This document shows positions 702 through 25,489 of a DNA stretch of 32,000 nt, piece after piece (the stretch's first letter is position 1; each line of letters starts with the position of its first letter). The notes beneath the pieces were generated by a model. That model saw nothing but the letters and a program-made list of their open reading frames with translations. It did not search any database and was not told the DNA's origin. Source of the stretch: Acaryochloris thomasi RCC1774 (lineage in GTDB: Bacteria; Cyanobacteriota; Cyanobacteriia; Thermosynechococcales; Thermosynechococcaceae); assembly GCF_003231495.1 (NCBI RefSeq), contig NZ_PQWO01000025.1, positions 1 to 32,000 of the forward strand, in the 5' to 3' direction. Position numbers and translations under genes: made by a program.

Positions 702-733
702 CTCACGGATTCCTCAGATTCCAGCTCTAAGTT
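702..733 (+). promoter_or_regulatory. Recurrent promoter-like module, instance A: 19-nt motif, 7-nt spacer, TAnnnT
   Basis: CTCACGGATTCCTCAGATT-ccagctc-TAAGTT, 74 nt upstream of the ATG at 807 and in the same orientation as that gene. Confidence 0.5.
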
Positions 734-806
734 GTAGGACATGGTCGTCCCTATCGATCTGTTATTTGGGAATGCAGAGTTATAGCACTGCTACAGGAGA
801 ATGTAG

Positions 807-1829
807 ATGAATTTAAACACAAACTATTTGGACCTGACGCTACGTTCTCCCTTAGTTGTAGGAGCCTGTGCGCCTCTGACGGAAAAAATTGAGCATCTAA
901 GACAGATAGAAGATGCTGGAGCTGCAGCAGTGGTGATGCATTCACTGTTTGAAGAACAATTACGTCAGGAGCGCTTTGAACTCCATCACCATCTCACCCA
1001 CTGTACCGAAAGCTTTGCTGAATCCCTTTCTTACTTCCCGGAACCCGATATTTTTCACGTCGGTGCAGAAGCTTATCTTGAGCACATTTGGCGGGCAAAG
1101 GAAATCGTCGATATCCCCATCATCGCCAGTCTCAACGGCTCAACCCTCGACAGTTGGACAAATTATGCTCAGCAAATTGAGGAGGCTGGGGCTGATGCCC
1201 TAGAGCTAAATATTTACGCGATTCCCACTGATATCGCGACTCCAGGAACGGCTGTTGAGCAAACCTATATAGATATCGTTCGCGCCGTCACGACAACCGT
1301 TAATATCCCCGTTGCCGTTAAACTGAGTCCTTTCTTTAGCAATTTGGCTTATATGGCTCGGCGCTTAACAGATGCCGGTGCCAATGGGCTGGTTTTGTTT
1401 AATCGTTTCTACCAGCCTGACATTGATCTTGAAACCCTAGAAGTCACGCCCAATGTCTTACTCAGTACCCCCCAAGATTTGCGGCTGCCCATGCGGTGGA
1501 TCGCAATTCTGTATGGAGCAGTGCCGATGGATTTAGCTGCAAGCAGCGGCATCCACACTGCAGCGGATGTATTGAAAATGCTGATGGTGGGAGCCAATGC
1601 CACCCTGCTGGTCAGTGTATTGCTGCGTCACGGAATTGATCACATTCGTACCCTAGAGCGAGATCTTCATCAGTGGTTAGAGGAGCACGATTATGACTCA
1701 GTACAGCAGCTCCAGGGCAACATGAGCCAGGTAAATTGTCCAGACCCCAGCGCCTATGAGCGGGTTCAGTACATGCAGGCTATCCAAACCTATCGCCCTT
1801 CATCAGAACCCTTTGTAAGTGTGAGTTAG
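807..1829 (+). CDS. Dihydroorotate dehydrogenase-like protein (class-1 PyrD/TIM-barrel flavoprotein family)
   Basis: 340-aa ORF whose layout resembles PyrD-like proteins (N-terminal LRSPLVVGA, IIASLNG, AGADALELNIY, PVAVKLSP, LVLFNR). Overlapping ORFs 751-945(-), 949-1203(+) and 1409-1603(-) are treated as shadow ORFs. Confidence 0.75.
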   Translation: MNLNTNYLDLTLRSPLVVGACAPLTEKIEHLRQIEDAGAAAVVMHSLFEEQLRQERFELHHHLTHCTESFAESLSYFPEPDIFHVGAEAYLEHIWRAKEIVDIPIIASLNGSTLDSWTNYAQQIEEAGADALELNIYAIPTDIATPGTAVEQTYIDIVRAVTTTVNIPVAVKLSPFFSNLAYMARRLTDAGANGLVLFNRFYQPDIDLETLEVTPNVLLSTPQDLRLPMRWIAILYGAVPMDLAASSGIHTAADVLKMLMVGANATLLVSVLLRHGIDHIRTLERDLHQWLEEHDYDSVQQLQGNMSQVNCPDPSAYERVQYMQAIQTYRPSSEPFVSVS

Positions 1830-1871
1830 TTCTGGGAATAACTATCCATCATTACTGATTACAAAAATCCT

Positions 1872-3026
1872 ATGACCCCACCGAAACGCATTGGAATACT
1901 CACCAGCGGCGGCGACTGTCCGGGACTGAACGCGATTATTCGGGCTGTGATCAAATGCGCGACGAACAACGGTTGGGAGGTCTTTGGTATTCCCTACGGC
2001 ACCAAGGGCTTTATTGACTTAGAAACCGGACAATGTCAGCCAGAAGACCTGCAGCTTAGAGAACATGGGTACGATCTGCCTAGCTTATTAGGAGGATTGG
2101 ATATTCTTCAGTTCCTCAGCGGTAGTGTTTTAGGGGCATTGAATAAAGGCGATCCTAGCGATCCAGACATTGCCCGAGAAATCTTGCAGGGCTATCGGCA
2201 TCTGAATCTTGATGCCTTAATTGCCATTGGCGGAGATGGCAGTCTCGACATCATTGATACCCTCGCTCAGCAGGGAAACTGGCAATGGATTGCGATTCCC
2301 AAAACCATCGATAATGATGTTCCGTTCACGGAGCAGTCCATCGGTTTTGATACCGCCGTCAATACAGTCACGAAGGCGCTTTATGATCTCACCTTTACGG
2401 CTGCCAGCCACGATCGCATCATGGCGGTCCAAGTCATGGGCCGCGATGCTGGACATTTAGCGTTTCAGTCTGGCATTGCCGGGGGCGCGGATGTGATTCT
2501 GATTCCAGAGCTAACGCCTTGCTTAAGCGAAAGGTTGGTGGATCAAATCTGTCACCAGATTTCTCGTCTGCGTCAGGGGGGCCGCCGATTTGCCCTTGTG
2601 GTGATTGCTGAAGGCGTTCGTAGACCAGACGGGAAAAAAGATTCACATATTAGCGATTATTTAGCACAGCAAATCCAGAGCCGGAGCCAAAGGTTGTGTG
2701 ACTCTGGAGCGCCGCAGTTTTGTACGCTACAAGAAGTCGATACTAGGGCTACGGTATTAGGACATATCCAGCGCAGTGGCACTCCTTCTGCCTTTGATCG
2801 GTTGCTAGCGGCTCGATTTGGTCGTGAGGCGATTAACCTGATTGCGATGGATAAGTACAACCAACTCGTGGTTTTGGAAAATGGCGAAGTGACCAGTAAA
2901 CCGTTAGATCAGGTGGTGCCTCAAGTTAGACAAAGCCATACAGATGGACGCTGCCCAGATCCGGTTGACGCTCAGGGACTGATGGTTCAGACGGCGAGGG
3001 ATTTGGGGATTTATGTTGGGGATTGA
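1872..3026 (+). CDS. pfkA: ATP-dependent 6-phosphofructokinase
   Basis: [36 protein letters not shown] and MGRDAGHLA are canonical PFK motifs. Confidence 0.9.
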
Positions 3027-3032
3027 ATGCAA

Positions 3033-3070
3033 AAGTTATGAGTTTTGTATGTTGAGCTTTGAGTTTGGGA
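3033..3070 (+). repeat. TGAGTTT-rich dispersed repeat, copy R1
   Basis: aagttatgagttttgtatgttgagctttgagtttggga, directly after the pfkA stop. It resembles copies at 14917-14954 and 26985-27021. Confidence 0.5.
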
Positions 3071-3121
3071 GAGGCCAGAGATTGGGCGATAGATCGCCAG
3101 ATGTTCTGGGTTTGCTGAGTT

Positions 3122-4255
3122 ATGAAGTTTGTTGATGAGTATCGGGATGCTGAGACAGCTCAAGGGTATGCGCGGGAGATTACGGGTCTAGTCACGCGAC
3201 CCTGGACGATCATGGAAATTTGTGGGGGGCAGACCCATGCAATTGTGAAGTATGGGATTGACCAGCTTCTCCCGGATGAAATTACGCTGATACATGGGCC
3301 GGGGTGTCCGGTATGTGTGACTCCAGTGGCGTTGATTGATGATGCGATCTCACTTTCTTTAACTCCCAATACCATTCTCTGTTCCTTTGGCGATATGCTG
3401 CGCGTGCCGGGAAGTGACTGCGATCTCTTATCAGCAAAGGCTCAGGGTGGCTCGGTACGAATGGTTTACTCTCCGCTGGATGCCCTCAAGCTAGCTCAGA
3501 AAAACCCAGAACAGCAGGTGGTTTTCTTTGCGGTGGGCTTTGAAACCACGGCCCCGACAACCGCAATGGCTGTTTATCAAGCACATCAGCAGAAAGTGGA
3601 CAATTTTTCAGTGTTGGTGGCCCATGTTTTGGTCCCACCCGCGATGGCGGCGATTTTAGCTGCGCCGGACTGCAGAGTGCAGGGCTTCTTAGCGGCAGGG
3701 CATGTTTGTACAGTGATGGGATATGGGGAATATGATGAGATCGCAGCCCAATATCACACCCCAATTGTCGTCACAGGCTTTGAACCCGTCGATATTCTGC
3801 AGGGGATTTATCACTGTATACAACAGCTAGAAGCCGGGACAGCTACAGTTGAGAATCAGTATGCCCGAGCCGTTCAACCCCAAGGGAACCTGACTGCTCA
3901 GCGGCTAATGATGGAAGTCTTTGAGGGGTGCGATCGCAAGTGGCGCGGCATGGACAGCATGCCTAAAAGTGGACTCAAACTTCGCTCTGAGTATGCCTAT
4001 CTTGATGCCCACCATCATCTGTCGAGGGAAGTGGGTCAACCACTAAATTCCAGCTTGTCTGCCAGCGCATCTCGTCCAGAAACCGAGTGCATCAGTGGAC
4101 AGATTTTACAAGGAACCCAAAAGCCGCCCGACTGTCCGGCCTTTGGCACCCGTTGTATACCTGAACACCCCCTCGGTGCCCCAATGGTATCGTCGGAAGG
4201 CGCTTGTGCCGCCTATTATCGATATCGGCAGTCGATGCCCTATTACAAGGTTTAG
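3122..4255 (+). CDS. hypD: [NiFe]-hydrogenase maturation protein HypD
   Basis: MKFVDEYRD start, [30 protein letters not shown], and the C-terminal [19 protein letters not shown] motif. Confidence 0.9.
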
Positions 4256-4298
4256 CACGCTCAAGATTCAAACTTAATTTTCTGAACAAAATGAACTA

Positions 4299-4396
4299 CC
4301 GTATAATTCCGAGATAATGACATTATCTCGGAATTATACGGATGGTGGCGGATAATATCCTTCCAGGCGGAGTTATCCGCCACCATCCGTATAATT
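4299..4396. repeat. 98-nt element of two overlapping perfect inverted repeats bounded by direct CCGTATAATT repeats
   Basis: IR1 has arms 4299-4319 and 4321-4341 (21 bp, perfect). IR2 core has arms 4342-4355 and 4373-4386 (14 bp, perfect). AATTATACGG (4332-4341) is complementary to CCGTATAATT at both 4299-4308 and 4387-4396. Confidence 0.7.
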
Positions 4397-4447
4397 AGTA
4401 TTATGTGGCACCGATAGACTGCAATAGCAAACCCCGAATCTCAGAAA

Positions 4448-4678
4448 TTGTGTTGGAAATTTGAAGACATCATCACTTTTAACAAGGTTTTAGATTTAGC
4501 TAGTAAGATGCGTATGGCTCAGCAAGATCCCTCTGAACAACAAAAGCTAGTAATAACACTTGAAGAGAATGCAATGGATTCTCTCGTTCACGGCATTGAG
4601 CATCACCTTTATGGCAAACGTAAGTCTGATTGGAAATATATAGTTCTGCATGTTTTCCATGCAGTTGAACTTTTTTAA
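4448..4678 (+). CDS. N-terminal fragment of a split HEPN-like protein (hypothetical)
   Basis: ORF ends ...VLHVFHAVELF* at TAA 4676-4678, directly after a T6 run (4671-4676). The translation continues in the -1 frame into the next ORF. The true start is uncertain (TTG 4448 or ATG 4508). Confidence 0.45.
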   Translation: MCWKFEDIITFNKVLDLASKMRMAQQDPSEQQKLVITLEENAMDSLVHGIEHHLYGKRKSDWKYIVLHVFHAVELF

Positions 4679-4767
4679 AGGCAAGACTTGCAAAGCATGA
4701 TGAAAAACTTATTTATACAAATCGCAAAAATGGACATACAGTTAGTTGCGTTGAAGCAATCGGGCGA

Positions 4768-5436
4768 TTGGTAAATGAAGTGAATATTCCGCTGGATAGT
4801 TATGCGGAATGTAAATTCAATAGCAAAAAAGCTAAATATCAATTTACCGGAGAGTTGGAAGAGTTACGGCAAGCAAGAAATGACATTGAGCATAAGGAAG
4901 CTTCTCTTAATAAAGATGCAGTTAATAAATTCCTGGGTGTCTCATTCCGATTCTTAGATGATTTTGTGAGTCGAGAGCTAGGACTAAGTTTGTCTGAGAA
5001 GTTAGAAGAACTTGATGAACTTCGATGGGAAGAGATGATTGAAGCAGGTATAGAAGAAATACCTGAGCAAGACAGCTACCAAACGCTCTCTCTTGCTTTC
5101 CTCTTGTACATTAAACATATGTCAGATCGGGGTATACCACTTCATCCTAAGGAAAGAGTTGATCATTCATTTTTTACTTGCGAAGTATGTGGTGAAGAAG
5201 CAGTTGTTCTACCCGATCCAAGGTCCTACTCTACGATCACTTACTGCTACAATTGTCGCGCTAAATATGAAGGTCATGCGTGTGCAAGATGTGAGCAGAT
5301 TTACATAGAATATTTAGGTGAATGGGAAAAAGGCGACATCCCACCTGAGCATCCTGATTTGAAAAGTCTTTTGAACTCTGGAGAAGATGACATGTCTTTT
5401 TGTCAAATGTGTCAAGGTTGGATTGCAGATCAGTAA
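4768..5436 (+). CDS. C-terminal fragment of the split HEPN-like protein: RNDIEH (Rx4H) helix plus four CxxC pairs
   Basis: This frame is already open from 4669 (TFLKARLAKHDEKLIYTNRKNGHTVSCVEAIGRL...). Contains LRQARNDIEHK, then CEVC...CYNC and CARC...CQMC. The region is AT-rich and has no GCGATCGC. Confidence 0.55.
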   Translation: MVNEVNIPLDSYAECKFNSKKAKYQFTGELEELRQARNDIEHKEASLNKDAVNKFLGVSFRFLDDFVSRELGLSLSEKLEELDELRWEEMIEAGIEEIPEQDSYQTLSLAFLLYIKHMSDRGIPLHPKERVDHSFFTCEVCGEEAVVLPDPRSYSTITYCYNCRAKYEGHACARCEQIYIEYLGEWEKGDIPPEHPDLKSLLNSGEDDMSFCQMCQGWIADQ

Positions 5437-5654
5437 TAGTGAAAATGCCGCATAACAATTCGGGTGCAGCGGATTGATCGAAGCCGCTTGGGTTGGATGC
5501 AAAAAACTTGGCAACCGCTGACCCGAACCGGTTATCAGGCTTCGCATGAAGACTTTGTAATTGTCCTTCCGTGCGATCAGGGGCCAAAAGCAACCGTTGG
5601 GCTATCTCTGCTAAATTCCAATAGTATAAGACTAGACCTATATGGAGGTGTACT

Positions 5655-5948
5655 ATGACCCCACAACTTGAAGTCGCAGTCGCTGCCATCCAGTCACTCT
5701 CACCCACAGAGCGTCAGCAACTGCTGCAAATTCTTATCCAAAGCGACTTAAACTCAACTTCTCAAACTGATCTCAAAGCACTCAGCACCCAGTTTTGGCA
5801 TGGCACCTCACTCAAGCAATTACGCGCCACCCAAACTCCCACGACCATTCATAACCTCAAAGATCTTGCTGCTGACTTTTGGCCCGCAGAAGACTCGATT
5901 GAGGATTTCCTTACCTTTCTGCGAGAGCAGCGCCAAGCAGTGATCTAG
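5655..5948 (+). CDS. Putative antitoxin partner of the downstream PIN toxin
   Basis: 97-aa ORF ending 10 nt before the PIN gene. GGAGG lies about 6 nt upstream of the ATG. Assigned by position and size only; no recognisable DNA-binding motif. Confidence 0.55.
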   Translation: MTPQLEVAVAAIQSLSPTERQQLLQILIQSDLNSTSQTDLKALSTQFWHGTSLKQLRATQTPTTIHNLKDLAADFWPAEDSIEDFLTFLREQRQAVI

Positions 5949-5958
5949 CCGAAATCCC

Positions 5959-6360
5959 ATGAGCCTTGCCCTAATTGACACGGACATCACCTCCTTCATC
6001 TTCAAAGGTAGCGACTATGCCGATCCTTACCTGCCACTTCTGAGCGATCAGGAATTAGCACTTTCTTTCATGACCATCGCTGAACTGTTTCAGTGGGCGA
6101 TCCTGCGTCAGTGGGGCAAGCGTCGCTTTTCGCAGCTAGAGCAATACCTATCGAATTACCTCATCATTCCGGTTGATCAACCGCTTTGTCGGGAATGGGC
6201 GCAGGTGCGGAGCGATCGCCAGAGTGCAGGACGACCGATTTCCCCTCAGGATGCTTGGATTGCCGCCACAGCTTTACGCCACGACTTACCGCTAGTCACT
6301 CACAACATCAAAGATTTTGCAGGAATTTCCAATCTACAGCTCATGATGCCTCCACTCTAA
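5959..6360 (+). CDS. vapC: PIN-domain ribonuclease, VapC-family toxin
   Basis: N-terminal LIDTDI, an acidic residue in TIAELF, PISPQDAWIAATAL and LVTHNIKDF match the PIN/VapC pattern. Confidence 0.85.
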   Translation: MSLALIDTDITSFIFKGSDYADPYLPLLSDQELALSFMTIAELFQWAILRQWGKRRFSQLEQYLSNYLIIPVDQPLCREWAQVRSDRQSAGRPISPQDAWIAATALRHDLPLVTHNIKDFAGISNLQLMMPPL

Positions 6361-6385
6361 CGCCTTGCTTGTTGTAGTCAGAACG

Positions 6386-6417
6386 CTCACAAAGTCCTCA
6401 AGTTTAGTGCCTATCTT
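6386..6417 (+). promoter_or_regulatory. Recurrent promoter-like module, instance B
   Basis: CTCACAAAGTCCTCAAGTT-tagtgcc-TATCTT, about 80 nt upstream of the small ORF at 6499. Confidence 0.5.
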
Positions 6418-6498
6418 CTAGGTGGGGCGGGCCATAACATCAGCCCTCACGCCTGATGCCCATAGCGAGAGCAGGCCCCACGCCAGGAGGTGTACATC

Positions 6499-6678
6499 AT
6501 GATCAACACAAAACCGAAACCTGCTCAACAACCATCCGTTCCTCAGCGGAAAAAGCATTGTAAGCGCAAAGACTTACGAAGACAAAATTTGAAAATAAAT
6601 CCTCCGAAGTGGTCTGTTCATCTACAGCGTCCTACCCCGACTTCTGAGAAGTTAAGTGATTGGGCAGAAGCGTCCTAG
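6499..6678 (+). CDS. Small, very basic hypothetical protein (59 aa)
   Basis: AGGAGG (6485-6490) lies 8 nt before ATG 6499. Product MINTKPKPAQQPSVPQRKKHCKRKDLRRQNLK... No homology recognised. Confidence 0.3.
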   Translation: MINTKPKPAQQPSVPQRKKHCKRKDLRRQNLKINPPKWSVHLQRPTPTSEKLSDWAEAS

Positions 6679-6712
6679 AATAACGGCCCCCCTAGACAGG
6701 AGAGAACGAAGG

Positions 6713-7165: not shown

Positions 7166-7191
7166 AGTTGAGAGGATGATGTCATTTCTCT

Positions 7192-8706: not shown

Positions 8707-8744
8707 TCTCTGCTCTAACCTGAATTGCTTAAGCTGCAATCCAT

Positions 8745-9761: not shown

Positions 9762-9853
9762 TCTGGCTACCTCTACTGATGAGTATGAATCTCATGATCG
9801 ACATCATCCTGAAACTCTGAACGCCTCTAGGCTCGTTCATTACGCACGAACCG

Positions 9854-10060
9854 CTAACTTACCGCTCCCTTGACGGACTTCTTCTCCTCCTGGTCAGCCT
9901 CCGGCAAGGTGAGATTGAAAACACCTTTGTCGTATTCGGCTTCAACATGATCAGGCTGAATGGGACTGGGCATCGAGATGACTCGCTCAAACTTGCCATC
10001 GTAGAACTCAGAGTGAGCTGTGCCTTCAGGCTCACTTTTTGATTCTGACTTCCGTTTCGA
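9854..10060 (-). pseudogene. Remnant of an hsp20 paralogue (last 68 codons only)
   Basis: Translation SKRKSESKSEPEGTAHSEFYDGKFERVISMPSPIQPDHVEAEYDKGVFNLTLPEADQEEKKSVKGAVS* aligns with the C-terminus of the hsp20 at 14266-14745. The N-terminal two thirds and a start codon are missing. Confidence 0.65.
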
Positions 10061-10091
10061 TCATAGAGAAAGAACTTGATGAACTTGTGAG
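10060..10091 (-). promoter_or_regulatory. Recurrent promoter-like module, instance C (minus strand, overlapping the ackA 3' end)
   Basis: The reverse complement reads CTCACAAGTTCATCAAGTT-ctttctc-TATGAT. It lies in the last codons and stop of ackA and points toward the hsp20 remnant and the methyltransferase gene. Confidence 0.45.
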
Positions 10092-11293
10092 GGATATGAA
10101 GTTAGGCAGCGCCAACAATCTTGGGCGATCGCCCAGTCTTCCTGGGTATGAATCACCAGCACGCGAACGCTAGATTCAGTAGTGGCAATATCCTGATCCA
10201 CTGGGTCGCTGTTGTTCTTAGCTGCGTCAATCTTCAATCCCAAAAACGCTAAAGCGTTACAGATTTCTGCGCGTACTCCTGCTGAATGTTCTCCAATTCC
10301 TGCAGTGAAGACAATGACATCGATACCGCCCAAGCTCATTAACATTGAACCCAGGCAGGATTGTAAGCGATGGAGATAGAGATCCCGTGCTAGTTTGGCC
10401 TGCTTGTTGCCCTGTGCGATCGCATCATCAATCTCGCGCATATCATGGGAGATCCCCGAAATGCCCTTGAGGCCAGATTCTTTATTGAGCATCTGATCAA
10501 GCTGATCGGCAGAATAGCCCTGGCGCATCAAGTGAATCAAAATGCCAGGATCAACCGCTCCCGACCGCGTACCCATCATCAATCCGTCTAACGGTGTATA
10601 TCCCATCGTGGTGTTGATGCTCCTACCACTCTTTACCGCCGTCAGAGAAGCCCCATTCCCTAGGTGACAAACGATCAATCGCTCCACCTCTCGCCCCAGG
10701 ATCTGAGCAGTCCGCTGAGTGCAGTACTGATGACTAATGCCGTGGAAGCCATAGCGACGAATGTCCTGCTCAATCCAGTTATAGGGGCCGGGATAGGTGG
10801 CGGCAATATCGGGGATGCGACTGTGAAAGGCGGTATCGAAAACAGCGATTTGAGGCACATTGCCAAGAAGCTCCTCTATGATTTCGATGCCTTCTAGGTT
10901 GGCCTCATTGTGGGTTGGCGCTAGGGGGATTAGGGATGCGATCTCATCCTTGACCTCATCCGTCACCACACTCGCTTGGTACTTCTGTCCTCCATGCACA
11001 ACCCGATGCCCCACAACATCAATCTCTTGCAGGTTTTGAATCACTTGAGTCCGTCCCTGCCAAAGTGTCATTAATAGATGCAGAAGAGCGTCAGCTCGAG
11101 AGACCGACAATAATTCCTCTTCTAGCTTCTCCCCCGCCGCAGTTCTGACAAGCAAGGCCGCATTATCTGGACGATGCCAATCCAGTTGAGCCTCCCAAAG
11201 TGGTGCTGGTGGAGCATCTGGGAACAACTCTTCAATCTTGTACAGGCAACACTTATGGCTACTGGACCCTGCATTGAGGACTAAAATCTTCAT
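10061..11293 (-). CDS. ackA: Acetate kinase
   Basis: MKILVLNAGSSSHK start, VGHRVVHGG, AFDTAFH, YGFHGISH and FTAGIGE are canonical AckA motifs. Confidence 0.92.
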   Translation of the reverse strand: MKILVLNAGSSSHKCCLYKIEELFPDAPPAPLWEAQLDWHRPDNAALLVRTAAGEKLEEELLSVSRADALLHLLMTLWQGRTQVIQNLQEIDVVGHRVVHGGQKYQASVVTDEVKDEIASLIPLAPTHNEANLEGIEIIEELLGNVPQIAVFDTAFHSRIPDIAATYPGPYNWIEQDIRRYGFHGISHQYCTQRTAQILGREVERLIVCHLGNGASLTAVKSGRSINTTMGYTPLDGLMMGTRSGAVDPGILIHLMRQGYSADQLDQMLNKESGLKGISGISHDMREIDDAIAQGNKQAKLARDLYLHRLQSCLGSMLMSLGGIDVIVFTAGIGEHSAGVRAEICNALAFLGLKIDAAKNNSDPVDQDIATTESSVRVLVIHTQEDWAIAQDCWRCLTSYPSQVHQVLSL

Positions 11294-14258: not shown

Positions 14259-14265
14259 TAAACCG

Positions 14266-14745: not shown

Positions 14746-14849
14746 AATCTCCTCTCCTAGTGTTCAACGACATCACGGGGATATCCCAACTGCAGTTTGA
14801 GCAAACACTACTACGTTGCAACTGTAGGGATTACCCTCGCTCTACTTTG

Positions 14850-14881
14850 ATCGTAGAGAAAGACTTTGATGAACTTGTGAG
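14850..14881 (-). promoter_or_regulatory. Recurrent promoter-like module, instance D (minus strand, upstream of hsp20)
   Basis: The reverse complement reads CTCACAAGTTCATCAAAGT-ctttctc-TACGAT, about 105 nt upstream of the hsp20 ATG. Confidence 0.5.
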
Positions 14882-14916
14882 GATGTGGCTGGTGGAGAAT
14901 TAGGGAGATAGAGGGG

Positions 14917-14954
14917 GGATTTTGAGTCTTGAAAGATGAGTTTCGAGTTGGGGA
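14917..14954 (+). repeat. TGAGTTT-rich dispersed repeat, copy R2
   Basis: ggattttgagtcttgaaagatgagtttcgagttgggga, flanked by direct GGGAGATAG(A/G)GGGG repeats (about 14903-14917 and 14951-14964). Confidence 0.5.
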
Positions 14955-16233: not shown

Positions 16234-16275
16234 ATATACAACTTACTAAACGTAAGTTTCGGAAAGCGTTGAGCG

Positions 16276-18300: not shown

Positions 18301-18633
18301 ACCTGTATAGGAGCCTCAAAATATCATCATCCAACATCAACATCCCGAACAGGAGCCTGGATGCTGGCTGACTCGAATTCTAATCTACTCAGAGGTGATT
18401 GAGAGAGTAGCGCGTGCAGGCTTGGCTGTTCGATCAGGGAAAGCCGTTTGGCAAATTCTTGGGATGAAGGGGACGGTGACTGTTCTCGATTGTCAGATGA
18501 AGTTGTATGAGGCATAACAATGCAGTCTTGACCGGATATTTAGCAGGCCGTGATGCTTGTAATGATGCGATCTTAACTCCTGCTGTCTCAGCATATCTCT
18601 TAGAGAGGTGGAGCACGATCGCTAATGAGCATC

Positions 18634-18665
18634 CACACAAGTTCCTCAATTCGCTTCTTTAGGCT
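18634..18665 (+). promoter_or_regulatory. Recurrent promoter-like module, instance E
   Basis: CACACAAGTTCCTCAATTC-gcttctt-TAGGCT, immediately upstream of the ABC ATPase gene. Confidence 0.45.
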
Positions 18666-18700
18666 GAGATGTGAGGCGATTGCTCTCTTCTATTAACTCA

Positions 18701-19483: not shown

Positions 19484-21847
19484 ATGACATCTCTGGACCA
19501 AAAGCTCCTGCGTGATCTTCTTCATCTGAAGGGGCAATTAGTTGCGATCTCACTGATCGTAGCCTGCGGCATAGCCTGTCTGGTCTCCATGCTCAGTGCC
19601 TATGATTCCCTACAGCTTTCTCAGCAAACTTACTACGATCGCTATCGGTTTGCAGACGTGTTTGTGCAGCTCAAACGAGCACCAGATTCCCTTGCAGCTC
19701 GGATTGCAGAAATTCCCGGTGTACAGCAGGTGCAGACACGGGTCGTTGTGGATGTGAACTTAGATGTGCCAAAGTTGGCGGAACCCGCAACGGGACGGCT
19801 TATTGCTATCCCTGAGCAGCAGATGCCGATTTTGAACGATTTATTTATTCGCAAAGGCCAATATATCGAGCCGGGACAGCGGGAGCAAGTCTTAGTCAGT
19901 GAAGTATTTGCCCAAGCAAATAATCTAGAGATTGGCGACACACTGGGTGCAGTGATCAATGAACGATGGCAGCAGTTGCGTATTGTGGGCGTTGCCCTAT
20001 CCCCCGAATACGTTTACGAAATTCGAGGAACGGAGCTTTTTCCTGATAATCAGCGTTTTGGTGTGATGTGGATGGGGCGCGAAGCTCTGGGGACCGCCTT
20101 TGATCTTGATGGCGCTTTCAATGATGTGGCGCTGTCGTTGATGCCAGGGACCAATCAATCAGAGGTGATTTTTCGGCTCGATCAACTCTTGGAACCCTAT
20201 GGAGGCCTGGGGGCTTACCCGCGAGAGGACCAAATCTCGCATCAGTTTATTAACAGTGAGATTGAGAGTTTAGCGGCGTCAGCGGTGATGCTTCCCATCA
20301 TCTTTCTTGGGATTGCAGCGTTTTTACTGAACTTGGTGCTGGCACGACTGGTGAGTACTCAACGCGATCAGATTGCTGTGCTCAAAGCCTTTGGCTATAG
20401 CAATCTTGCCGTAGGTCTGCACTACGTGAAGCTGGTGCTGGCGATTACGATTCTAGGGGCAGGATTAGGGACCGCTCTAGGCGTCTGGTTCGGAGCTGCG
20501 ATTACTGAGAACTATGCCCGTTTCTACCACTTTCCAGTTTTGGAGTACCGGGCGGGGTTTAATGTAGTTGCGATCGCAATTCAAGTCAGCGTCGGCGCAG
20601 CGGTCCTCGGGACATTAACAGCAGTCAAACAGGCCGTCTCCCTTCCCCCCGCAGAAGCGATGCGACCTGAGCCTCCCGCAGTATATCGAGCCACGATTCT
20701 AGAACGAGTGGGACTGCAGCGGTTCTTGTCCCCCGTCGGTCAAATTATTGTCCGCAATCTAGAACGGCGGTGGATTCAGGCTGCTTTAGCCATCATCGGC
20801 ATTGCCGCAGCCGTCGCTATTCTCGTTATCGGTCGCTACTTTGAGGATGCCACGAACTACATCGTTGAAGTTCAGTTTCGCCAGGTGCAGCGCGATGATG
20901 TCACCCTGGTCTTTAATGAGCCACTGTCCGGTCGCGCCCGTTATGAACTGAAGCAGTTGCCAGGAGTACTGCAGGCCGAGTCCTTCCGAGCCATACCGGC
21001 GCGTCTACGCTTTCAGCATCAAACCCATCTCACTGGGTTGACGGGCCTCGAACCTCAGGGTGAGTTGCGTCGTCTATTAGATCAAGACCTGCATCCAGTT
21101 CCCTTACCGAGCAATGGCGTGGTCTTGACCACAAAGTTAGCCGAAATTCTGGGCGTCAACGTGGGTGATCCGCTCACGGTAGAGGTTTTAGAAGGAGAAC
21201 GCCCCATTCGCACCGTTCCGGTGGTGGGGTTGGTGGACGAACTGATCGGTTTAGGAGCCTATATGGATATCCATGCGATCAACACCTTAATGCGAGAAGG
21301 CCAAACCGTCTCAGGAGCCTACCTCTCGGTGGACTCTTACCACTTGAGCAAGCTCTATGCTGAGCTTAAAGAAACACCTGCCGTCGCAAGTGTCGCTCTC
21401 CGCGAGCGAGTCATTGAGGAGTTCGACAAAACGATTGCCGAGAGCTTCACCATCTTCACGACGGTCCTGGTTATCTTTGCCAGCGTAATTGCCTTTGGCG
21501 TGGTCTACAACGTGGCCCGAATTGCCCTTTCAGAACGAGGACGTGAACTGGCAACCCTACGGATCATAGGGTTCACCAAGGCAGAAATCGCTGTGATCTT
21601 GCTGGGCGAACAGGCCATCGTCACCGCCCTTGCAATCCCTCTGGGATGTGGCATCGGATTCGGCCTCGCCGCCCTGATTACCCAAGCCTACGACTGGGAG
21701 CTATTTCGCTTCCCGTTAATCGTCACTCCCGCCAGCTACGCCTTCGCCTTTTTCGTGATTACGATCGCGGCCCTTGGTTCAGGATGGCTGATCCGCCGCC
21801 AGCTCAATCACCTTGATTTAATTGCAGTCCTCAAAACACGCGAATGA
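19484..21847 (+). CDS. ABC transporter permease, FtsX/MacB type with two permease modules
   Basis: 787 aa with two 4-TM FtsX-like modules separated by large extracytoplasmic domains. Its start immediately follows the ATPase stop. Confidence 0.88.
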   Translation: MTSLDQKLLRDLLHLKGQLVAISLIVACGIACLVSMLSAYDSLQLSQQTYYDRYRFADVFVQLKRAPDSLAARIAEIPGVQQVQTRVVVDVNLDVPKLAEPATGRLIAIPEQQMPILNDLFIRKGQYIEPGQREQVLVSEVFAQANNLEIGDTLGAVINERWQQLRIVGVALSPEYVYEIRGTELFPDNQRFGVMWMGREALGTAFDLDGAFNDVALSLMPGTNQSEVIFRLDQLLEPYGGLGAYPREDQISHQFINSEIESLAASAVMLPIIFLGIAAFLLNLVLARLVSTQRDQIAVLKAFGYSNLAVGLHYVKLVLAITILGAGLGTALGVWFGAAITENYARFYHFPVLEYRAGFNVVAIAIQVSVGAAVLGTLTAVKQAVSLPPAEAMRPEPPAVYRATILERVGLQRFLSPVGQIIVRNLERRWIQAALAIIGIAAAVAILVIGRYFEDATNYIVEVQFRQVQRDDVTLVFNEPLSGRARYELKQLPGVLQAESFRAIPARLRFQHQTHLTGLTGLEPQGELRRLLDQDLHPVPLPSNGVVLTTKLAEILGVNVGDPLTVEVLEGERPIRTVPVVGLVDELIGLGAYMDIHAINTLMREGQTVSGAYLSVDSYHLSKLYAELKETPAVASVALRERVIEEFDKTIAESFTIFTTVLVIFASVIAFGVVYNVARIALSERGRELATLRIIGFTKAEIAVILLGEQAIVTALAIPLGCGIGFGLAALITQAYDWELFRFPLIVTPASYAFAFFVITIAALGSGWLIRRQLNHLDLIAVLKTRE

Positions 21848-21860
21848 GGAGAAAACACTG

Positions 21861-23342
21861 ATGACTCAACAACAACATCGGTCTCCACTCCCTAGAGTGC
21901 GACACCCCCAACCACCCCCATCGGAGCCGCCTCCATCTCCAACCGTTTCTGATGGCGATCCCCCACAGTCCGCCCCCCCTCCATCTCACCATTCCTCAAC
22001 TCAAAACTCAAAATTCAAAATTCCCAAACGCCTCCCCTACTGGCTAGCCGGTCTAGGCGTCGTCACGCTCATCGCCTTGGCCTTCCGCCCCTCTCCCATC
22101 CCCGTAGATTTAGGCGAAGTCAAACGCGGTCCCCTCCAGGTCACAGTAGATGCAGAGGGTAAAACTAGAGTGCGAGATCGCTTCACCGTCGCGGCCTCTG
22201 TCTCCGGTCGTCTAGCCCGCATTGACCTAGATCCGGGTGACCCAATTAAAGGCGGCACCGTGATCGCTCGAATTGATCCGCTGCCCCTCAATATCAAGGT
22301 GCGAGAGTCGCAGGCTCGACTGCGGGAGCTACGCGCTCAGTTGGCTGGAGTAGAGACCCAACGCCCTAAGTCGGCGGCATTGGCCCAAGCCCAAGCCCAG
22401 ATTCAAGGTGCGATCGCAACCCAACAACAAGCCGAAGCTAAATATCAAGAAGCCCAGGCCGACCTCGCTCAGACAAGTCGCGATCGCAAACGCGCCCAAG
22501 ACCTTGAGAAATCCGGTGCCCAATCTCGTAAGGTTAGAGAAGATGCAGAGCTAGCTGAGACTCAACGGCAACAAGAAGTAAAGGCCGCCCGGAATCAGGT
22601 GGAAGTTGCCGCAGCAAATGTAGCCGCAGCCCGAAAAGCGCTATCTGTCCTCCAGGCCGAGCAGAAAGATCCTGACTACCTCCAGGATGTCTATCGCGCT
22701 CAAATTGCCAGTACAGAATCCACGTTGACCAATCTTGCCGATGAAGCCCGTCGCACTGCTGTTCGCGCTCCGGTGGGGGGGAATGTACTCCGAGTGATGG
22801 AAGAAAGTGCTCGCTTTGTTCAGGCAGGCGATCCGCTCCTTGAGTTAGGCAATGCTACCCAACTGGAATTGGCAATCGATGTTCTCTCCACCGATGCAGT
22901 TAAAGTCAAACCAGGTGCCTCAATCAACATTGAACACTGGGGTGGAGAGCAACCTCTGCAGGCCCAAGTCCGCTACTTAGAACCGTCAGCCTTCACAGAG
23001 GTTTCCGCCTTGGGGGTCGATGAGCAGCGTGTGAATGTGATTGCCAATTTTGCCAATCCACCTCGGTCTTTGGGGGATGGCTATCGGGTCGAAGCTCAAA
23101 TCGTGGTTTGGGAAGATGAAGACGCCTTGAAAGTTCCTTTGAGTGCCCTGTTTCGTTGTGGCGATCAGGACTGGTGTACGTTTGTGGCTGAGCAGGGGAA
23201 AGCCCAGCGGCGTCAGGTGGTGATTGGTCAGCGAAGTAGTTTAGAGGCTGCGGTTGATGAAGGATTGAAAGCAGGTGATCAGGTGATTTTGCATCCCAGT
23301 GAGCAGATCAAAGCAGGGCAGTGGATTAGTAACAGATCATAA
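21861..23342 (+). CDS. HlyD-family periplasmic adaptor (membrane fusion protein)
   Basis: Pro-rich N-terminus, a TM segment, a long Ala/Gln/Glu coiled-coil and a beta-barrel tail. ATG 21861, preceded by GAGGAG, is preferred over the TTG/overlap start at 21822. Confidence 0.85.
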   Translation: MTQQQHRSPLPRVRHPQPPPSEPPPSPTVSDGDPPQSAPPPSHHSSTQNSKFKIPKRLPYWLAGLGVVTLIALAFRPSPIPVDLGEVKRGPLQVTVDAEGKTRVRDRFTVAASVSGRLARIDLDPGDPIKGGTVIARIDPLPLNIKVRESQARLRELRAQLAGVETQRPKSAALAQAQAQIQGAIATQQQAEAKYQEAQADLAQTSRDRKRAQDLEKSGAQSRKVREDAELAETQRQQEVKAARNQVEVAAANVAAARKALSVLQAEQKDPDYLQDVYRAQIASTESTLTNLADEARRTAVRAPVGGNVLRVMEESARFVQAGDPLLELGNATQLELAIDVLSTDAVKVKPGASINIEHWGGEQPLQAQVRYLEPSAFTEVSALGVDEQRVNVIANFANPPRSLGDGYRVEAQIVVWEDEDALKVPLSALFRCGDQDWCTFVAEQGKAQRRQVVIGQRSSLEAAVDEGLKAGDQVILHPSEQIKAGQWISNRS

Positions 23343-23349
23343 TTTCTCC

Positions 23350-23381
23350 CTCATAGAAACCTCAAAGTAATTTTTTAGAGT
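23350..23381 (+). promoter_or_regulatory. Recurrent promoter-like module, instance F (most divergent)
   Basis: CTCATAGAAACCTCAAAGT-aattttt-TAGAGT, 22 nt before ATG 23403. Confidence 0.4.
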
Positions 23382-23402
23382 TGGTGTGTGGCAATCTAAA
23401 CC

Positions 23403-23822
23403 ATGTATGAATTTGAGGAGCTAACTTTTACTATGGAGTACCTCTACTTTTTTGCGAATGCTAGCCTCACACTTGAAGCGATCGACTATTTGATTAAACG
23501 CGATCACCTTCCCTTGGATTACGTTACTGTTGTCCATTCACCTGAGGGATGGTTGATTCGGATGAAATTTGACGGATGCATCGAGCCTAAGTTGGAGGCC
23601 GATTTCCTGGCGGTAATGAATGAATTTGGCCATCCCTACGAGGCTTCTATGCCGATGGTTATAGCTTTGGAGGGTATAGATACAGGCCAGACAACGGAAG
23701 AAATCTTGCATCGACATCTAATTTCAGTCATTGCTCACGGAAAACCAGATCGGAAAAACATCGAAGTCTTTCAGCAAGAGTTCGTCCAAGGGGCATCTAT
23801 CTGCCCAAAAAGTCTCAAATAG
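23403..23822 (+). CDS. Hypothetical protein (139 aa)
   Basis: Long ORF with no overlapping competitor. No family recognised. Confidence 0.5.
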   Translation: MYEFEELTFTMEYLYFFANASLTLEAIDYLIKRDHLPLDYVTVVHSPEGWLIRMKFDGCIEPKLEADFLAVMNEFGHPYEASMPMVIALEGIDTGQTTEEILHRHLISVIAHGKPDRKNIEVFQQEFVQGASICPKSLK

Positions 23823-23848
23823 TTGTTGCTGAATGGGAGGATTTTGCG

Positions 23849-24280
23849 ATGATTAATACTAATTCAAGCCAACATTCCGAACAGACTCAGACTGAGTTCG
23901 GTTCTTGGGATGCTCCTCTTACAGAACCGCTATCGGGGTCTCAGCCGACGGATCATCCATCACCGATCTCATCTCCCCCCTTTCTCAGCCCCGCAGGTGT
24001 CCCAATGCCCTGTGTAATTTCTCTGGCAGGGAGTCCAACCGTGCAGTCTCTAATGCATTGGGGATTGAAGCTCTCTCCGAAGAGTCTCCATGTTGCGGAA
24101 TGGAGAGATGCTCTGGCGCTTTTGATGTGGCAAGCCTCTGTCCTCCGGTTGTCTCAGATGCTCATTGAAGACGAGTTGAAGCTCAAAGTCTGCCGTAAAG
24201 GAACGCTGAGAACTCAAATTCAGAATGCGTTAGCACTCCTCTTTTGGTTGGGGAATGATGGTGTAATGAGCCATGCTTAA
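23849..24280 (+). CDS. Hypothetical protein (143 aa) with a Pro/Ser-rich N-terminal half
   Basis: GGGAGG lies 8 nt before the ATG. No family recognised. Confidence 0.45.
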   Translation: MINTNSSQHSEQTQTEFGSWDAPLTEPLSGSQPTDHPSPISSPPFLSPAGVPMPCVISLAGSPTVQSLMHWGLKLSPKSLHVAEWRDALALLMWQASVLRLSQMLIEDELKLKVCRKGTLRTQIQNALALLFWLGNDGVMSHA

Positions 24281-24311
24281 ATGTCGATGCAGTTCTTAAT
24301 CGATGTAGCTG

Positions 24312-25352
24312 ATGCAAACGGGTTCGCTGTCTTGTCCGATTCCCATTGAGCAATACCCGCATGTTCTTCTGGCCCATGGGGGCGGTGGCAAATTAATGCA
24401 TCAGCTCATTGAGCAGATGTTTATGAGATTGTTCCAGCCAGAGGTGCGTTGTCAGCACGATTCGGCAGTGTTGGAGATGCCGTCAGGACGCCTCGCCTTT
24501 ACGACCGATTCCTATGTGGTACATCCCCTATTTTTCCCTGGGGGTGATATTGGTTCTTTGGCCGTTCACGGGACCATCAACGATCTAGCAATGGCGGGTG
24601 CTCGTCCCCTATATCTCAGCGCCAGCTTCATTCTAGAAGAGGGGCTAGCGATGGATACGCTCTGGCAAGTTGTGCAATCAATGCATCAGGCCGCTCAGCA
24701 GGCTAATGTACGGGTGGTAACAGGAGACACAAAGGTTGTAGAACGAGGCAAGGGCGACGGTCTGTTTATTAATACAGCGGGCGTTGGTGTGATTGAGCAC
24801 GAGCAAGTGATCCATCCGCAGTCTGTACGCCCCGGAGATGTCGTGTTGCTCAACGGTGACGTTGGACGCCACGGCATTGCCGTAATCGCAGTTAGGGAAG
24901 GGCTAGAGTTTGAAAGCAATATTGAGAGCGATTCTGCTTTGCTCAATGATGTAGTGCTAAAGCTATTAGAGGCTGGGGTTGAGCTGCACTGTTTACGAGA
25001 TTTGACTCGGGGGGGGCTTGCGAGTGCGTTGAACGAGATTGCAGAAGCCGCAGGGGTTACAATCGCACTCCAAGAAACAAGCATTCCCGTCCGAAAAGAT
25101 GTGCAGGGAGCCTGTGAGATTCTTGGATTTGATCCGTTATATGTTGCTAACGAAGGACGATTTGTAGCATTTATCCCGCAAAAATCTGTTGATCTAGCCC
25201 TTTCCATTTTGCACAGCCAAAATCATCCCTTGGCCCAGGTTATTGGTCAAGTGACAGAGAGTTCAGCGGCTCGTGTCACTATCAAGAGCAGAATTGGAAC
25301 TCAGCGCATTGTTGACATGCTAAGTGGTGAACAGCTTCCCCGAATTTGCTAA
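24312..25352 (+). CDS. hypE: [NiFe]-hydrogenase maturation protein HypE
   Basis: LAHGGGG near the N-terminus, a PurM-like fold ([20 protein letters not shown]), and the diagnostic C-terminal PRIC. Confidence 0.9.
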
Positions 25353-25457
25353 GCGGCTAATGTCAGTTATGTAATTGTCTCGATAACAAACTTTTTGGGT
25401 TCTTCCCAGCTTTTGATGTCGCTTACTGCAGTCTTATGAGGTTATAGGTGTAGATAC

Positions 25458-25489
25458 TTCACAAGTTCCTCAAGTTATCGGTTTATAAA
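25458..25489 (+). promoter_or_regulatory. Recurrent promoter-like module, instance G (upstream of the N-ATPase operon)
   Basis: TTCACAAGTTCCTCAAGTT-atcggtt-TATAAA, about 60 nt before ATG 25550. Confidence 0.5.

Follow-up and report, generated by a model that had tools for sequence, protein, structure and literature searches.

Several described promoter elements are built around an activator site upstream of the -10 hexamer. Pho boxes, the targets of PhoB in E. coli and represented in cyanobacteria by SphR boxes, consist of two or more 7-8 bp repeats with an 11 bp period, positioned about 10 bp upstream of the -10, and are bound head-to-tail by a regulator of the OmpR/PhoB family that contacts region 4 of the sigma factor. 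Direct-repeat promoter boxes are also bound by phosphorylated RcaC, the L box being TTGTTA-N5-TTGTTA, while RpaA, which controls night-time sugar catabolism, and RpaB, associated with the HLR1 motif, are further cyanobacterial examples. NtcA, by contrast, binds a palindrome, GTA-N8-TAC, centred at -41.5. Here we describe a direct-repeat box that occurs seven times in the window, a 32,000 nt stretch of Acaryochloris thomasi RCC1774 DNA, and trace it through other cyanobacteria.

Seven copies of a promoter element

The initial annotation had reported seven 32-mers; rechecked against the window, their coordinates, strands and sequences were correct, as was the invariance of positions 3, 4, 11, 13, 14 and 15. 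They are listed below with three extra upstream bases, as distal repeat, linker and proximal repeat, followed after 11 nt in every case by the -10 hexamer.

Site A, 699..733, + strand: GCCCTCA-cgga-TTCCTCA, TAAGTT; serves a DHO-dehydrogenase-like gene (807-1829), pfkA (1872-3026) and hypD (3122-4255)
Site B, 6383..6417, + strand: ACGCTCA-caaa-GTCCTCA, TATCTT; serves a small ORF (6490-6678), orf169 (6656-7165) and an FAD oxidoreductase gene (7192-8706)
Site C, 10060..10094, - strand: TCCCTCA-caag-TTCATCA, TATGAT; a duplicated hsp20 promoter joined to an hsp20 3' remnant (9819-10056)
Site D, 14850..14884, - strand: ATCCTCA-caag-TTCATCA, TACGAT; serves hsp20 (14266-14745), followed on the same strand by xfp (11568-14042) and ackA (10061-11293)
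Hybrid sensor kinase genes, - strand, between sites D and E: REC-HisKA-HATPase, 15091-16233, and PAS-HisKA-HATPase-REC, 16276-18300
Site E, 18631..18665, + strand: ATCCACA-caag-TTCCTCA, TAGGCT; serves an ABC/FtsX/HlyD exporter operon (18671-23342)
Site F, 23347..23381, + strand: TCCCTCA-taga-AACCTCA, TAGAGT; serves two orphan ORFs (23403-24280) and a hypE-like gene (24312-25352)
Site G, 25455..25489, + strand: TACTTCA-caag-TTCCTCA, TATAAA; serves the N-ATPase operon (25526-31054 and beyond), with an embedded Na+/H+ exchanger gene

These sites are confirmed as genuine copies of a cyanobacteria-wide promoter element. A 19 nt position weight matrix (PWM) built from them scores its own members at 19.2-26.8 bits, and the next best of the 64,000 window positions reaches 15.8 bits and has no -10 hexamer; with each site left out in turn, six of the seven were found in the top seven of the 64,000 positions, the weakest being at rank 10. 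A degenerate pattern including TAnnnW retrieved exactly these seven sites from the window and none from 100 dinucleotide shuffles. As originally claimed, each points at the next gene, and all are intergenic except for site C, which lies at the extreme 3' end of ackA. The hexamer had been described as TAnnnT throughout; this holds for six sites, that of site G being TAnnnA.

Positions 10056-10092 and 14846-14882, encompassing sites C and D, are 89% identical, and the 3' third of hsp20 recurs at 9819-10056 with 79% identity. Locus C is thus a truncated copy of hsp20, and the window holds six independent sites, not seven. Transcription from site C may extend into the CMAS-type methyltransferase gene (8745-9761). 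The 37 nt shared by these two sites, together with the adjoining 238 nt repeat, might suggest that the 32-mers are the ends of a mobile repeat, if not simply chance matches. This similarity reflects the partial hsp20 gene duplication, however, and no other site has similar flanks; along with the empty shuffles and the conserved position and orientation before orthologous genes in other genera, this refutes both ideas, which we regard as barely credible.

The two half-sites of about 9 nt originally proposed (CAAGTT) represent a weaker register than that obtained by including the three upstream bases, (t)TCCTCA-N4-TTCCTCA with an 11 bp period. The consensus is TTCCTCA-CAAS-TTCCTCA-AAtT, in which two 7 bp direct repeats span about -41 to -20, in place of the -35 hexamer, the proximal one ending 11 nt from the TAnnnT -10. 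The reported lack of a TTGACA-like -35 was borne out, with 4-5 mismatches at six of the seven sites. With 7 bp repeats at this period, the resemblance to OmpR-class sites, initially judged only loose, is loose no longer; what counts against membership of this class is the conservation of the 4 bp linkers (CAAG/CAAC, AAtT), which exceeds that of typical OmpR-class boxes.

Conservation and gene content across cyanobacteria

An exact-core pattern, applied to 185,579 genomes with no constraint on the -10, matched 120 loci, 76 of them cyanobacterial and 44 non-cyanobacterial. In 57 of the 76 a TAnnnT hexamer follows at a spacer of exactly 7 nt, and in none at 6 or 8 nt, such that the constant spacer first noted in the window is rigid across the phylum. 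The cyanobacterial copies lie mostly outside open frames of at least 150 codons (68/76), whereas 40 of the 44 non-cyanobacterial matches are within long open frames, and four of the 44 have a -10. The pattern left bases -2 and -1 free; T occupies the first in 57/76 cyanobacterial loci and C the second in 63/76, completing the second TTCCTCA at the 11 bp period. A further 49 PWM sites followed by a -10 are present in the 541 kb of these cyanobacterial loci, compared to one in 320 kb of the non-cyanobacterial loci; the consensus of the 49, likewise unconstrained by the search pattern, is tCCTCACAA.TTCCTCAAAtTtTTt.t.TAa.tT. The motif is distributed over Nostocales, Pleurocapsales, Leptolyngbyaceae and other groups, and no description of it was found in the searchable literature, in agreement with the initial annotation, which had recognised no known element.

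Conservation in related genomes is evident from orthologous genes in other genera, which retain the element in front of them. At the orthologous hsp20, exporter, orfA-hypE, DHOdh-like and N-ATPase promoters, the box is kept while spacer and flanks have diverged, with TAnnnT at its fixed distance except at the A. marina N-ATPase site (TAAAAC). Site A has an orthologue upstream of the same DHOdh-like gene on A. marina plasmid pREB4 (L128, 13322-13356), site F has one in A. marina (L128, 23934-23968), and those of sites D and E are found in both L001 and A. marina; for site D, motif, spacing, -10 and leader start are all preserved between diverged flanks. The N-ATPase operon likewise has sites in front of it in L048, L021, L106 and A. 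marina, as do orf169 homologues in an uncultured cyanobacterium MAG (L053) and Fischerella (L103). The hybrid-kinase pair is again located between exporter and hsp20 in L001/L002.

The seven units had been viewed as a stress or fermentation set, and the same gene set recurs in distant cyanobacteria, where hoxW/hyp, hoxH, nifJ, PEP synthase and pyruvate kinase genes, as well as hsp20 and genes for universal stress proteins (USP), CBS proteins and N-ATPase, are found downstream of the motif. The output would combine fermentation genes (pfk, xfp, ackA, pps, pyk, nifJ, glgP) with hydrogenase genes (hox, hyp), genes for ion homeostasis (N-ATPase, antiporter, P-type ATPase) and genes for stress or dormancy (hsp20, USP, CBS, groESL, nitroreductase). 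Such a coordinated programme presumably serves dark, low-oxygen conditions, which may also provide the inducing signal.

On pREB4, a metabolic island of ~130 kb (95-227 kb) holds 20 sites that score at least 13 bits and have a -10, in front of most of its transcription units; the 95 kb conjugative backbone has none at this threshold. Strong sites at 133472+, 156709- and 114148- have no usable -10, and tandem or divergent pairs are also seen, some boxes being upstream auxiliary copies; these arrangements fit a DNA-binding protein better than a sigma factor -35 element. The plasmid N-ATPase genes of A. marina were found to rise only slightly under microoxia (PMC5295598), so that low oxygen is no more than a candidate inducing signal.

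A candidate activator and competing explanations

With the existence, geometry, conservation and gene set of the element established, we infer that each site forms the core of an activator-dependent promoter. From sequence comparison, it is probable (roughly 0.6) that the box is a class II activator box for an OmpR/PhoB-family response regulator, with an RcaC-like regulator as leading candidate. The phosphorylated protein would bind the repeats head-to-tail as a dimer and recruit RNA polymerase with a sigma factor of group 1 or 2, in the manner of PhoB at Pho boxes. The putative regulator would be a complex protein with the domain order REC, winged helix, HPt and REC, in some cases extended by GGDEF or PAS, and its gene would lie within the regulon or next to it. 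Its input would come from PAS/GAF hybrid kinases through a single-domain receiver, on the model of the four-step Rca phosphorelay of chromatic acclimation; the two hybrid kinases between sites D and E are candidate inputs.

The pREB4 protein AM1_RS34120 is made up of REC, Trans_reg_C, Hpt, REC and GGDEF domains, and a 24.7-bit site lies upstream of its own gene; the L001 orthologue, 64% identical, has the same divergent arrangement with sites. In Acaryochloridaceae SU_2_1, an operon of regulator, GAF-PAS kinase and REC is flanked by 22.6- and 25.1-bit sites, the gene order in Rivularia is regulator, REC, box, hsp20, and in Calothrix a perfect box follows 54 nt after the end of the regulator gene. 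Within the family, which is found in the taxa that also have the motif, the recognition helix, EEAVRTHIKGLRQKLK, shows almost no variation, and the candidate's N-terminal half matches the solved OmpR/PhoB-family proteins MtrA, RegX3 and RpaA with E-values of 8e-41 to 2e-38. The regulator-box association draws on about five lineages, and only 4 of the 76 motif-anchored 8 kb loci hold a family member. Among seven loci anchored on other family members, six have no box within 10 kb (Nostoc edaphicum, Stanieria with two paralogues, Phormidesmis and three others), and the RcaC-like family therefore includes paralogues without a visible link to the box.

The initial annotation had suggested either an activator site over the -35 or an alternative sigma factor, a reading that is supported. 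The main rival to a response regulator is the second of these, with the 22 bp box serving as an extended -35 or spacer recognition element of a group-2-like sigma factor and no separate activator, which we consider unlikely. The absence of any tolerance in -10 spacing would be equally consistent with a sigma factor contacting the box directly, the -10 is of the TAnnnT type, and the A. marina island encodes a candidate, a 299-aa sigma-70 family protein behind a weak, 13.7-bit box. This protein has a group 1/2-like region 2.4, but SREWVRKLE in region 4.2 as against TRERIRQIE in primary sigma factors, and it has been guessed to control the block (PMC8949462). However, its close relatives (at least 62% identity) are confined to the Acaryochloris lineage, beyond which matches are generic, about 50% identical group 2 sigma factors, while the motif is far more widespread. 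Two equal direct repeats, one of them 11 nt from the -10, also misfit a single -35 contact at 17 ± 1 nt, and the strong boxes without a -10 and the auxiliary copies tell against it too.

It is still less likely that RpaA, the universal circadian/dusk regulator, or RpaB binds the box in place of a dedicated regulator, making the regulon part of a night-metabolism programme. RpaA belongs to the OmpR family and is among the closest solved relatives of the candidate's DNA-binding half, and the best matches to an Anabaena RpaA PWM are similar direct repeats (TTTCTTTAGATT, and TTCCTTAAGT at the rpaB gene). Also in its favour, glycogen and sugar catabolism genes of Synechococcus elongatus are driven by RpaA at dusk (PMC13421787). 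Yet the TCA that is invariant in the box corresponds to TTA in RpaA sites, and among the matches listed no Anabaena RpaA-PWM hit contains CCTCAAG or CTCACAAG or falls at hoxW or nifJ. Furthermore, no box is present at the N-ATPase operon of PCC 7002, a strain that should carry RpaA given the near-universal occurrence of this regulator in cyanobacteria. HLR1 fits the seven sites with 4-8 mismatches, and identity of the box with this RpaB motif was rejected.

Marginally more doubtful again is that the box is an operator, at which a repressor blocks the -35 region under aerobic conditions or in the light and the -10 alone suffices for transcription. The box overlaps the RNA polymerase footprint, and many cyanobacterial promoters work with a -10 alone. 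In Synechocystis, hox and nifJ are known to be under negative control by cyAbrB2 and LexA (PMC11368403). A repressor would require neither the base-pair-exact spacing nor the strict gene-ward orientation observed, however, and direct repeats of 11 bp period are typical of response-regulator activators.

Comparison with known systems

The DosR dormancy regulon of Mycobacterium tuberculosis is a functional analogue only. The overlap in gene content comprises alpha-crystallin/hsp20, several universal stress proteins, a CBS protein, phosphofructokinase, a P-type ATPase, a nitroreductase and an AAA/kinase-like protein; DosR is nevertheless of the NarL type and binds a 20 bp palindrome, with no homology of regulator or motif. 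Class II NtcA promoters share an activator site in place of the -35 before a TAN3T -10, but none of the seven sites is a full NtcA match, the best having 1-3 mismatches in the six specified bases. RpaA and RpaB (HLR1) sites are alike in being OmpR-class direct repeats at or near -35 of cyanobacterial promoters.

The likeness to Pho boxes lies in the direct repeats, their 11 bp period and the replacement of the -35, with the proximal repeat here ending 11 nt from the -10. In sequence the two are unlike (TTCCTCA as against CTGTCAT or YTTAAYYW, 5-9 mismatches), and so are the regulons, Pho boxes serving phosphate acquisition and the present box fermentation, hydrogenase and stress genes. The L box does not fit the seven sites (4-6 mismatches), the targets here are not phycobiliprotein genes, and some candidate-family members add GGDEF or PAS to the RcaC architecture of REC, winged helix, HPt and REC. 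The candidate regulator does share that architecture, and its gene is often accompanied by those for a PAS/GAF kinase and a single-domain receiver, neighbours that match the RcaE/RcaF/RcaC component set (PMC8256508).

Box architecture and the seven window sites

Seven sites in the window (A-G, listed below with the surrounding genes) carry a box of two direct repeats, consensus TTCCTCA-N4-TTCCTCA, upstream of a TAnnnT -10 hexamer (TATAAA at site G). The coordinates and strands assigned to the seven 32-mers in the initial annotation were correct when checked against the window sequence, its gene calls agree with the Pfam annotation and, as it had proposed, each site faces the next downstream gene.

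Boxes and genes of the window (coordinates, strand, feature)
233-667, +, psbU
699-733, +, site A
807-1829, +, DHO-dehydrogenase-like (DHOdh) gene
1872-3026, +, pfkA
3122-4255, +, hypD
5959-6360, +, PIN toxin (Pfam)
6383-6417, +, site B
6490-7165, +, two small ORFs
7192-8706, +, FAD oxidoreductase
8745-9761, -, CMAS methyltransferase
10060-10094, -, site C
10061-11293, -, ackA
11568-14042, -, xfp
14266-14745, -, hsp20
14850-14884, -, site D
15091-18300, -, two hybrid sensor kinases
18631-18665, +, site E
18671-23342, +, ABC/FtsX/HlyD exporter
23347-23381, +, site F
23403-24280, +, two orphan ORFs
24312-25352, +, hypE-like gene
25455-25489, +, site G
25526 onward, +, N-ATPase operon with embedded Na+/H+ exchanger

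Scored with a 19 nt weight matrix built from the seven, the sites reach 19.2-26.8 bits, and the best other position among the approximately 64,000 in the window reaches 15.8 bits and lacks a -10 hexamer. When each site was left out in turn, six of the seven ranked within the top seven positions and the weakest was tenth. A degenerate pattern including TAnnnW matches exactly these seven sites in the window, and had no match in 100 dinucleotide-preserving shuffles of it.

The addition of three upstream bases resolves each site into two 7 bp repeats with a 4 bp gap, for example ATCCTCA-caag-TTCATCA, the proximal repeat ending 11 nt upstream of the -10 hexamer. The tandem direct half-sites originally described are retained, but the 9 nt register based on CAAGTT is secondary, an 11 bp period giving a better description. 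The reported lack of a -35 element was borne out, as TTGACA is mismatched at four to five bases in six of the seven sites.

Sites C and D do not count as independent: 10056-10092 matches 14846-14882 at 89% identity, and 9819-10056 matches the final third of hsp20 and a further 35 nt at 79%. These two identities, of the promoter and of the hsp20 3' end, indicate that locus C (9819-10092), situated between ackA and the CMAS methyltransferase gene, is a truncated duplicate of the hsp20 locus, in which the promoter is fused to the last ~65 hsp20 codons through a 377 nt internal deletion. The duplicated box is overlapped by the final ~10 codons of ackA. Among the outcomes that the initial annotation named as overturning its reading was that the 32-mers are ends of a longer mobile repeat. 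As flanks are shared only by C and D, through the partial hsp20 duplication, and no further pair of sites shares them, an origin as mobile-repeat or MITE ends was rejected; the sites are intergenic and oriented towards genes.

Several other features of the window were observed. The region between hypD and site B (4256-6360) includes a 1.4 kb stretch without Pfam matches, followed by a 97 aa ORF and the PIN-domain toxin, which resemble a toxin-antitoxin pair; two weaker box-like sequences without a -10 hexamer lie within the 1.4 kb stretch, on its - strand, at 4952-4970 and 5009-5027. A 35 nt repeat family with heptamer-like substructure (AGTTATGAGTTTTGAAGGATGAGTTTCGAGTTAGG) occurs at 3034-3068, 14918-14952 and 26986-27020, all copies being intergenic and at most ~140 nt from the 3' end of a gene, which two of the three directly follow. 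The HIP1 octamer GCGATCGC, an excess of which is a cyanobacterial hallmark, is present in 19 copies against ~0.5 expected. Within the N-ATPase operon, a Na+/H+ exchanger gene (27751-28980) lies between the AtpZ/AtpI-like gene and AtpR, an arrangement shared by the Acaryochloris plasmid pREB4 and absent from PCC 7002 plasmid pAQ7. A search of the whole window against Rfam returned no match.

Conservation in relatives and across the phylum

The window hsp20 is 92% identical to another protein, 82% to its counterpart in L001, a metagenome-assembled relative, and 71% to the copy on A. marina pREB4, and the gene neighbourhood of the window is common to the latter two. Upstream of hsp20 and the exporter, both relatives have kept the box together with a TAnnnT hexamer at the fixed distance, as has A. 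marina for the orphan-hypE and DHOdh-pfk-hypD units; the A. marina N-ATPase site retains the box, but has TAAAAC in the hexamer position. Spacers and flanks of these orthologous sites have diverged from those in the window. The N-ATPase operon of pAQ7 has no box. The hsp20 leader (~100 nt; window 14746-14850) and its orthologues in L001 and the pREB4 locus L128 contain conserved blocks past the start region, reading TCAAAGTAGA..., CCC...GTCGTTGAACA..AGGAG, which could be an RNA thermometer or other leader element.

A genome collection was scanned with the core only (YTCACAARTTCMTCAAGTT), leaving the -10 hexamer unspecified, and gave at least 120 loci, with at least 76 cyanobacterial and at least 44 other loci among the matches listed. 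Among these, TAnnnT follows at spacer 7 in 57 of the 76 cyanobacterial loci versus 4 of the 44 others, and at spacer 6 or 8 in none of the 76, in accordance with the fixed 7 nt spacing initially claimed. Conversely, open frames of at least 150 codons contain 8/76 cyanobacterial matches versus 40/44 of the remainder, and the 44 non-cyanobacterial loci among the matches listed behave as chance coding matches. The cyanobacterial matches listed come from Nostocales, Pleurocapsales, Leptolyngbyaceae, Phormidesmis, Alkalinema, Chamaesiphon, Pseudanabaenales, Thermosynechococcaceae and Acaryochloris.

Positions left free by the search are conserved in the 76 listed loci as well: T at -2 (57/76) and C at -1 (63/76) complete the distal repeat TTCCTCA, no further conservation being found upstream of -2, and a T-rich spacer is followed by T, A and T of the hexamer. 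The weight matrix detected 49 extra sites with a -10 hexamer in 541 kb of the listed cyanobacterial loci versus one in 320 kb of the non-cyanobacterial loci; many of the 49 are arranged as divergent pairs or in clusters, with as many as seven sites in 8 kb. The consensus of 49-51 extra sites, free of the exact-core pattern, is tCCTCACAA.TTCCTCAAAtTtTTt.t.TAa.tT. The element is almost certainly a real, conserved promoter feature. Perfect boxes with TAnnnT at spacer 7 were also seen in a bin labelled 'Alphaproteobacteria' (L039) and in an 'uncultured bacterium' (L041), the latter upstream of an hsp20 gene; both are probably mis-binned cyanobacterial contigs.

Genes downstream of the box

In the listed cyanobacterial loci, HoxH, pyruvate kinase and a DHOdh-like protein recur directly after the box, as do NifJ (pyruvate:ferredoxin oxidoreductase) and PEP synthase, both assigned by eye, NifJ from its sequence. 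A small protein without a Pfam match was read as the hydrogenase maturation protease HoxW from a sequence motif and the adjoining hypA. Further recurrent products are Hsp20, universal stress proteins (USP), CBS-domain and pentapeptide proteins, a Host_attach/baeRF protein, DJ-1/PfpI, the exporter, PsbU paralogues and the N-ATPase. In Nostoc PCC 7120, hoxW transcripts start 44 and 70 bp upstream of the gene, with a -10 sequence TAGCTT and no -35 (PMC2670836).

The entire A. marina plasmid pREB4 was scanned with the weight matrix, with the following distribution.

Matrix matches on pREB4 (region, matches, matches with TAnnnT at the fixed distance)
1-95 kb, conjugative backbone: 8 above 12 bits, mostly in ORFs; 0 at 13 bits or more with TAnnnT
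95-227 kb, metabolic island: 35 above 12 bits; 20 at 13 bits or more with TAnnnT, nearly all intergenic

Boxes of the island precede the DHOdh-pfk-hypD unit, hsp20, the exporter, orphan-hypE, DUF4278, nitroreductase, hoxU, hoxW-hyp, glgP, a sigma factor, an MDR dehydrogenase, PRC-groESL, USP genes, ftsH, DJ-1 and an acyltransferase. The box upstream of nifJ is weaker (12.0 bits, with TAGGGT), and those of ppsA (CTAACT) and the N-ATPase (TAAAAC) lack TAnnnT at the fixed distance. The conserved plasmid block has been described as a likely fermentation and redox module, for which suggested regulators are a sigma factor and a PAS protein (PMC8949462), and the plasmid ATPase rises slightly under microoxia (PMC5295598). 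The backbone separately encodes a response regulator annotated as RpaB (locus L138, 7037-7780), two further sigma-70 family genes and one AbrB-family gene, such that pREB4 holds several extra copies of global regulators.

Recognition of the box and comparison with known systems

The Pho box consists of direct repeats of matching geometry, at which a PhoB dimer takes the place of the -35 contact. TTCCTCA-N4-TTCCTCA likewise has the tandem direct repeats and 10-11 bp period of OmpR/PhoB-type boxes and, as in class II activation, replaces the -35 element at a fixed distance from the -10 (spacer 7 in 57/76 of the cyanobacterial matches listed). That the spacing is exact and the orientation strict suggests contact with RNA polymerase and speaks against a simple operator. 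An alternative sigma factor recognising the box instead seems unlikely: region 4.2 of the sigma factor on the pREB4 island is altered, but close relatives of this factor occur in the Acaryochloris lineage alone, whereas the box spans cyanobacterial orders. Moreover, a sigma factor's upstream element should occur only together with its -10, yet pREB4 has boxes of 24-26 bits without one at the fixed distance (133472+ and 156709-), a further strong example at 114148-, and inverted or auxiliary upstream copies; these -10-less and auxiliary boxes argue for a DNA-binding protein over a sigma -35 element. The box probably works as an OmpR/PhoB-class activator site.

A candidate for its binder is the RcaC-like complex response regulator AM1_RS34120 of pREB4 (792 aa; REC, Trans_reg_C, Hpt, REC and GGDEF in Pfam), which, like other members of its family, has the RcaC-type combination of REC, winged helix, HPt and second REC. 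An OmpR/PhoB module of canonical type forms its N-terminal half, family members hardly differ in the recognition helix, and a 24.7-bit box lies upstream of the gene. The L001 orthologue, 64% identical, keeps the divergent DUF4278/regulator arrangement with boxes; in Acaryochloridaceae SU_2_1, boxes of 22.6 and 25.1 bits flank an operon of regulator, GAF-PAS kinase and REC; Rivularia has the regulator followed by REC, box and hsp20; and the gene for a 56%-identical regulator in Calothrix stops 54 nt short of a perfect box. By association, about five lineages have a regulator with Trans_reg_C encoded within or next to the regulon. A complex regulator with a sensor kinase and a single receiver mirrors the RcaE/RcaF/RcaC phosphorelay (PMC8256508). 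The neighbours of the 76 listed loci, searched for a DNA-binding regulator, were mostly heterogeneous kinases, and the RcaC-like link came solely from pREB4. Six loci anchored on other family members had no box nearby, which implies that paralogues with other roles exist and that the assignment is inferential: at somewhat less than even odds, the binder is an RcaC-like regulator. Some of these regulators have a C-terminal GGDEF (L128 38642-41020, A. marina pREB4; L131 14216-16555, Stanieria), which would link DNA binding in a phosphorelay with c-di-GMP synthesis in one protein.

Taken jointly, these elements may, with a probability of roughly 0.35, represent an undescribed master regulon by which many cyanobacteria survive darkness or low oxygen, a functional counterpart of the mycobacterial DosR regulon. 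It would comprise fermentation, the bidirectional hydrogenase and its maturation, the Na+ N-ATPase, Hsp20, USP and CBS proteins. Its switch would be a four-step phosphorelay of the Rca type, with an RcaC-type regulator, fused to a diguanylate cyclase in some lineages, binding the box in place of a -35 element; in Acaryochloris and its relatives, the complete regulon, regulator, kinases and sigma factor included, would move on a plasmid as one island. In cyanobacteria, the night-time or anoxic induction of hydrogenase, pyruvate:ferredoxin oxidoreductase and fermentative glycolysis is still unsettled: the factors described for hydrogenase and fermentation are LexA, cyAbrB proteins and SigE, none being a dedicated activator, and cyAbrB2 is the sole regulator given for nifJ in a 2026 review. 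A cis element shared by several orders, of base-pair-exact geometry and located before exactly these genes, offers a direct handle on the missing regulator, a means of predicting the regulon in any genome and, for the engineering of hydrogen or fermentation pathways, an inducible promoter of compact size, and would explain how the 100 kb Acaryochloris plasmid block (PMC8949462) acts as one functional module.

Established regulatory boxes were compared with the seven sites. The L box of RcaC has the consensus TTGTTA-N5-TTGTTA and that of NrrA/Rre37, suggested by the presence of pfkA, xfp and glgP, is TG(T/A)CA-N8-TG(T/A)CA; these are mismatched at 4-6 positions in all seven sites and at 3-5 positions, respectively. 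The HLR1 motif of RpaB, (G/T)TTACA(T/A)(T/A)-N2-(G/T)TTACA(T/A)(T/A), has 4-8 mismatches at every site, the NtcA motif GTA-N8-TAC near -41.5 has no full match in any site or the 40 nt upstream, and none of the LexA, CRP, E. coli Pho and SphR Pho boxes fits. The motif string was not found in the literature searched, and recent reviews give no such element for hox or nifJ. Published Anabaena FIMO matches to the RpaA matrix are direct repeats of similar architecture, but read TTA in place of the invariant TCA of the box, and none of those listed contains CCTCAAG or CTCACAAG. From these comparisons, the element is classed as a probable response-regulator activator box, defining a regulon that is apparently undescribed.
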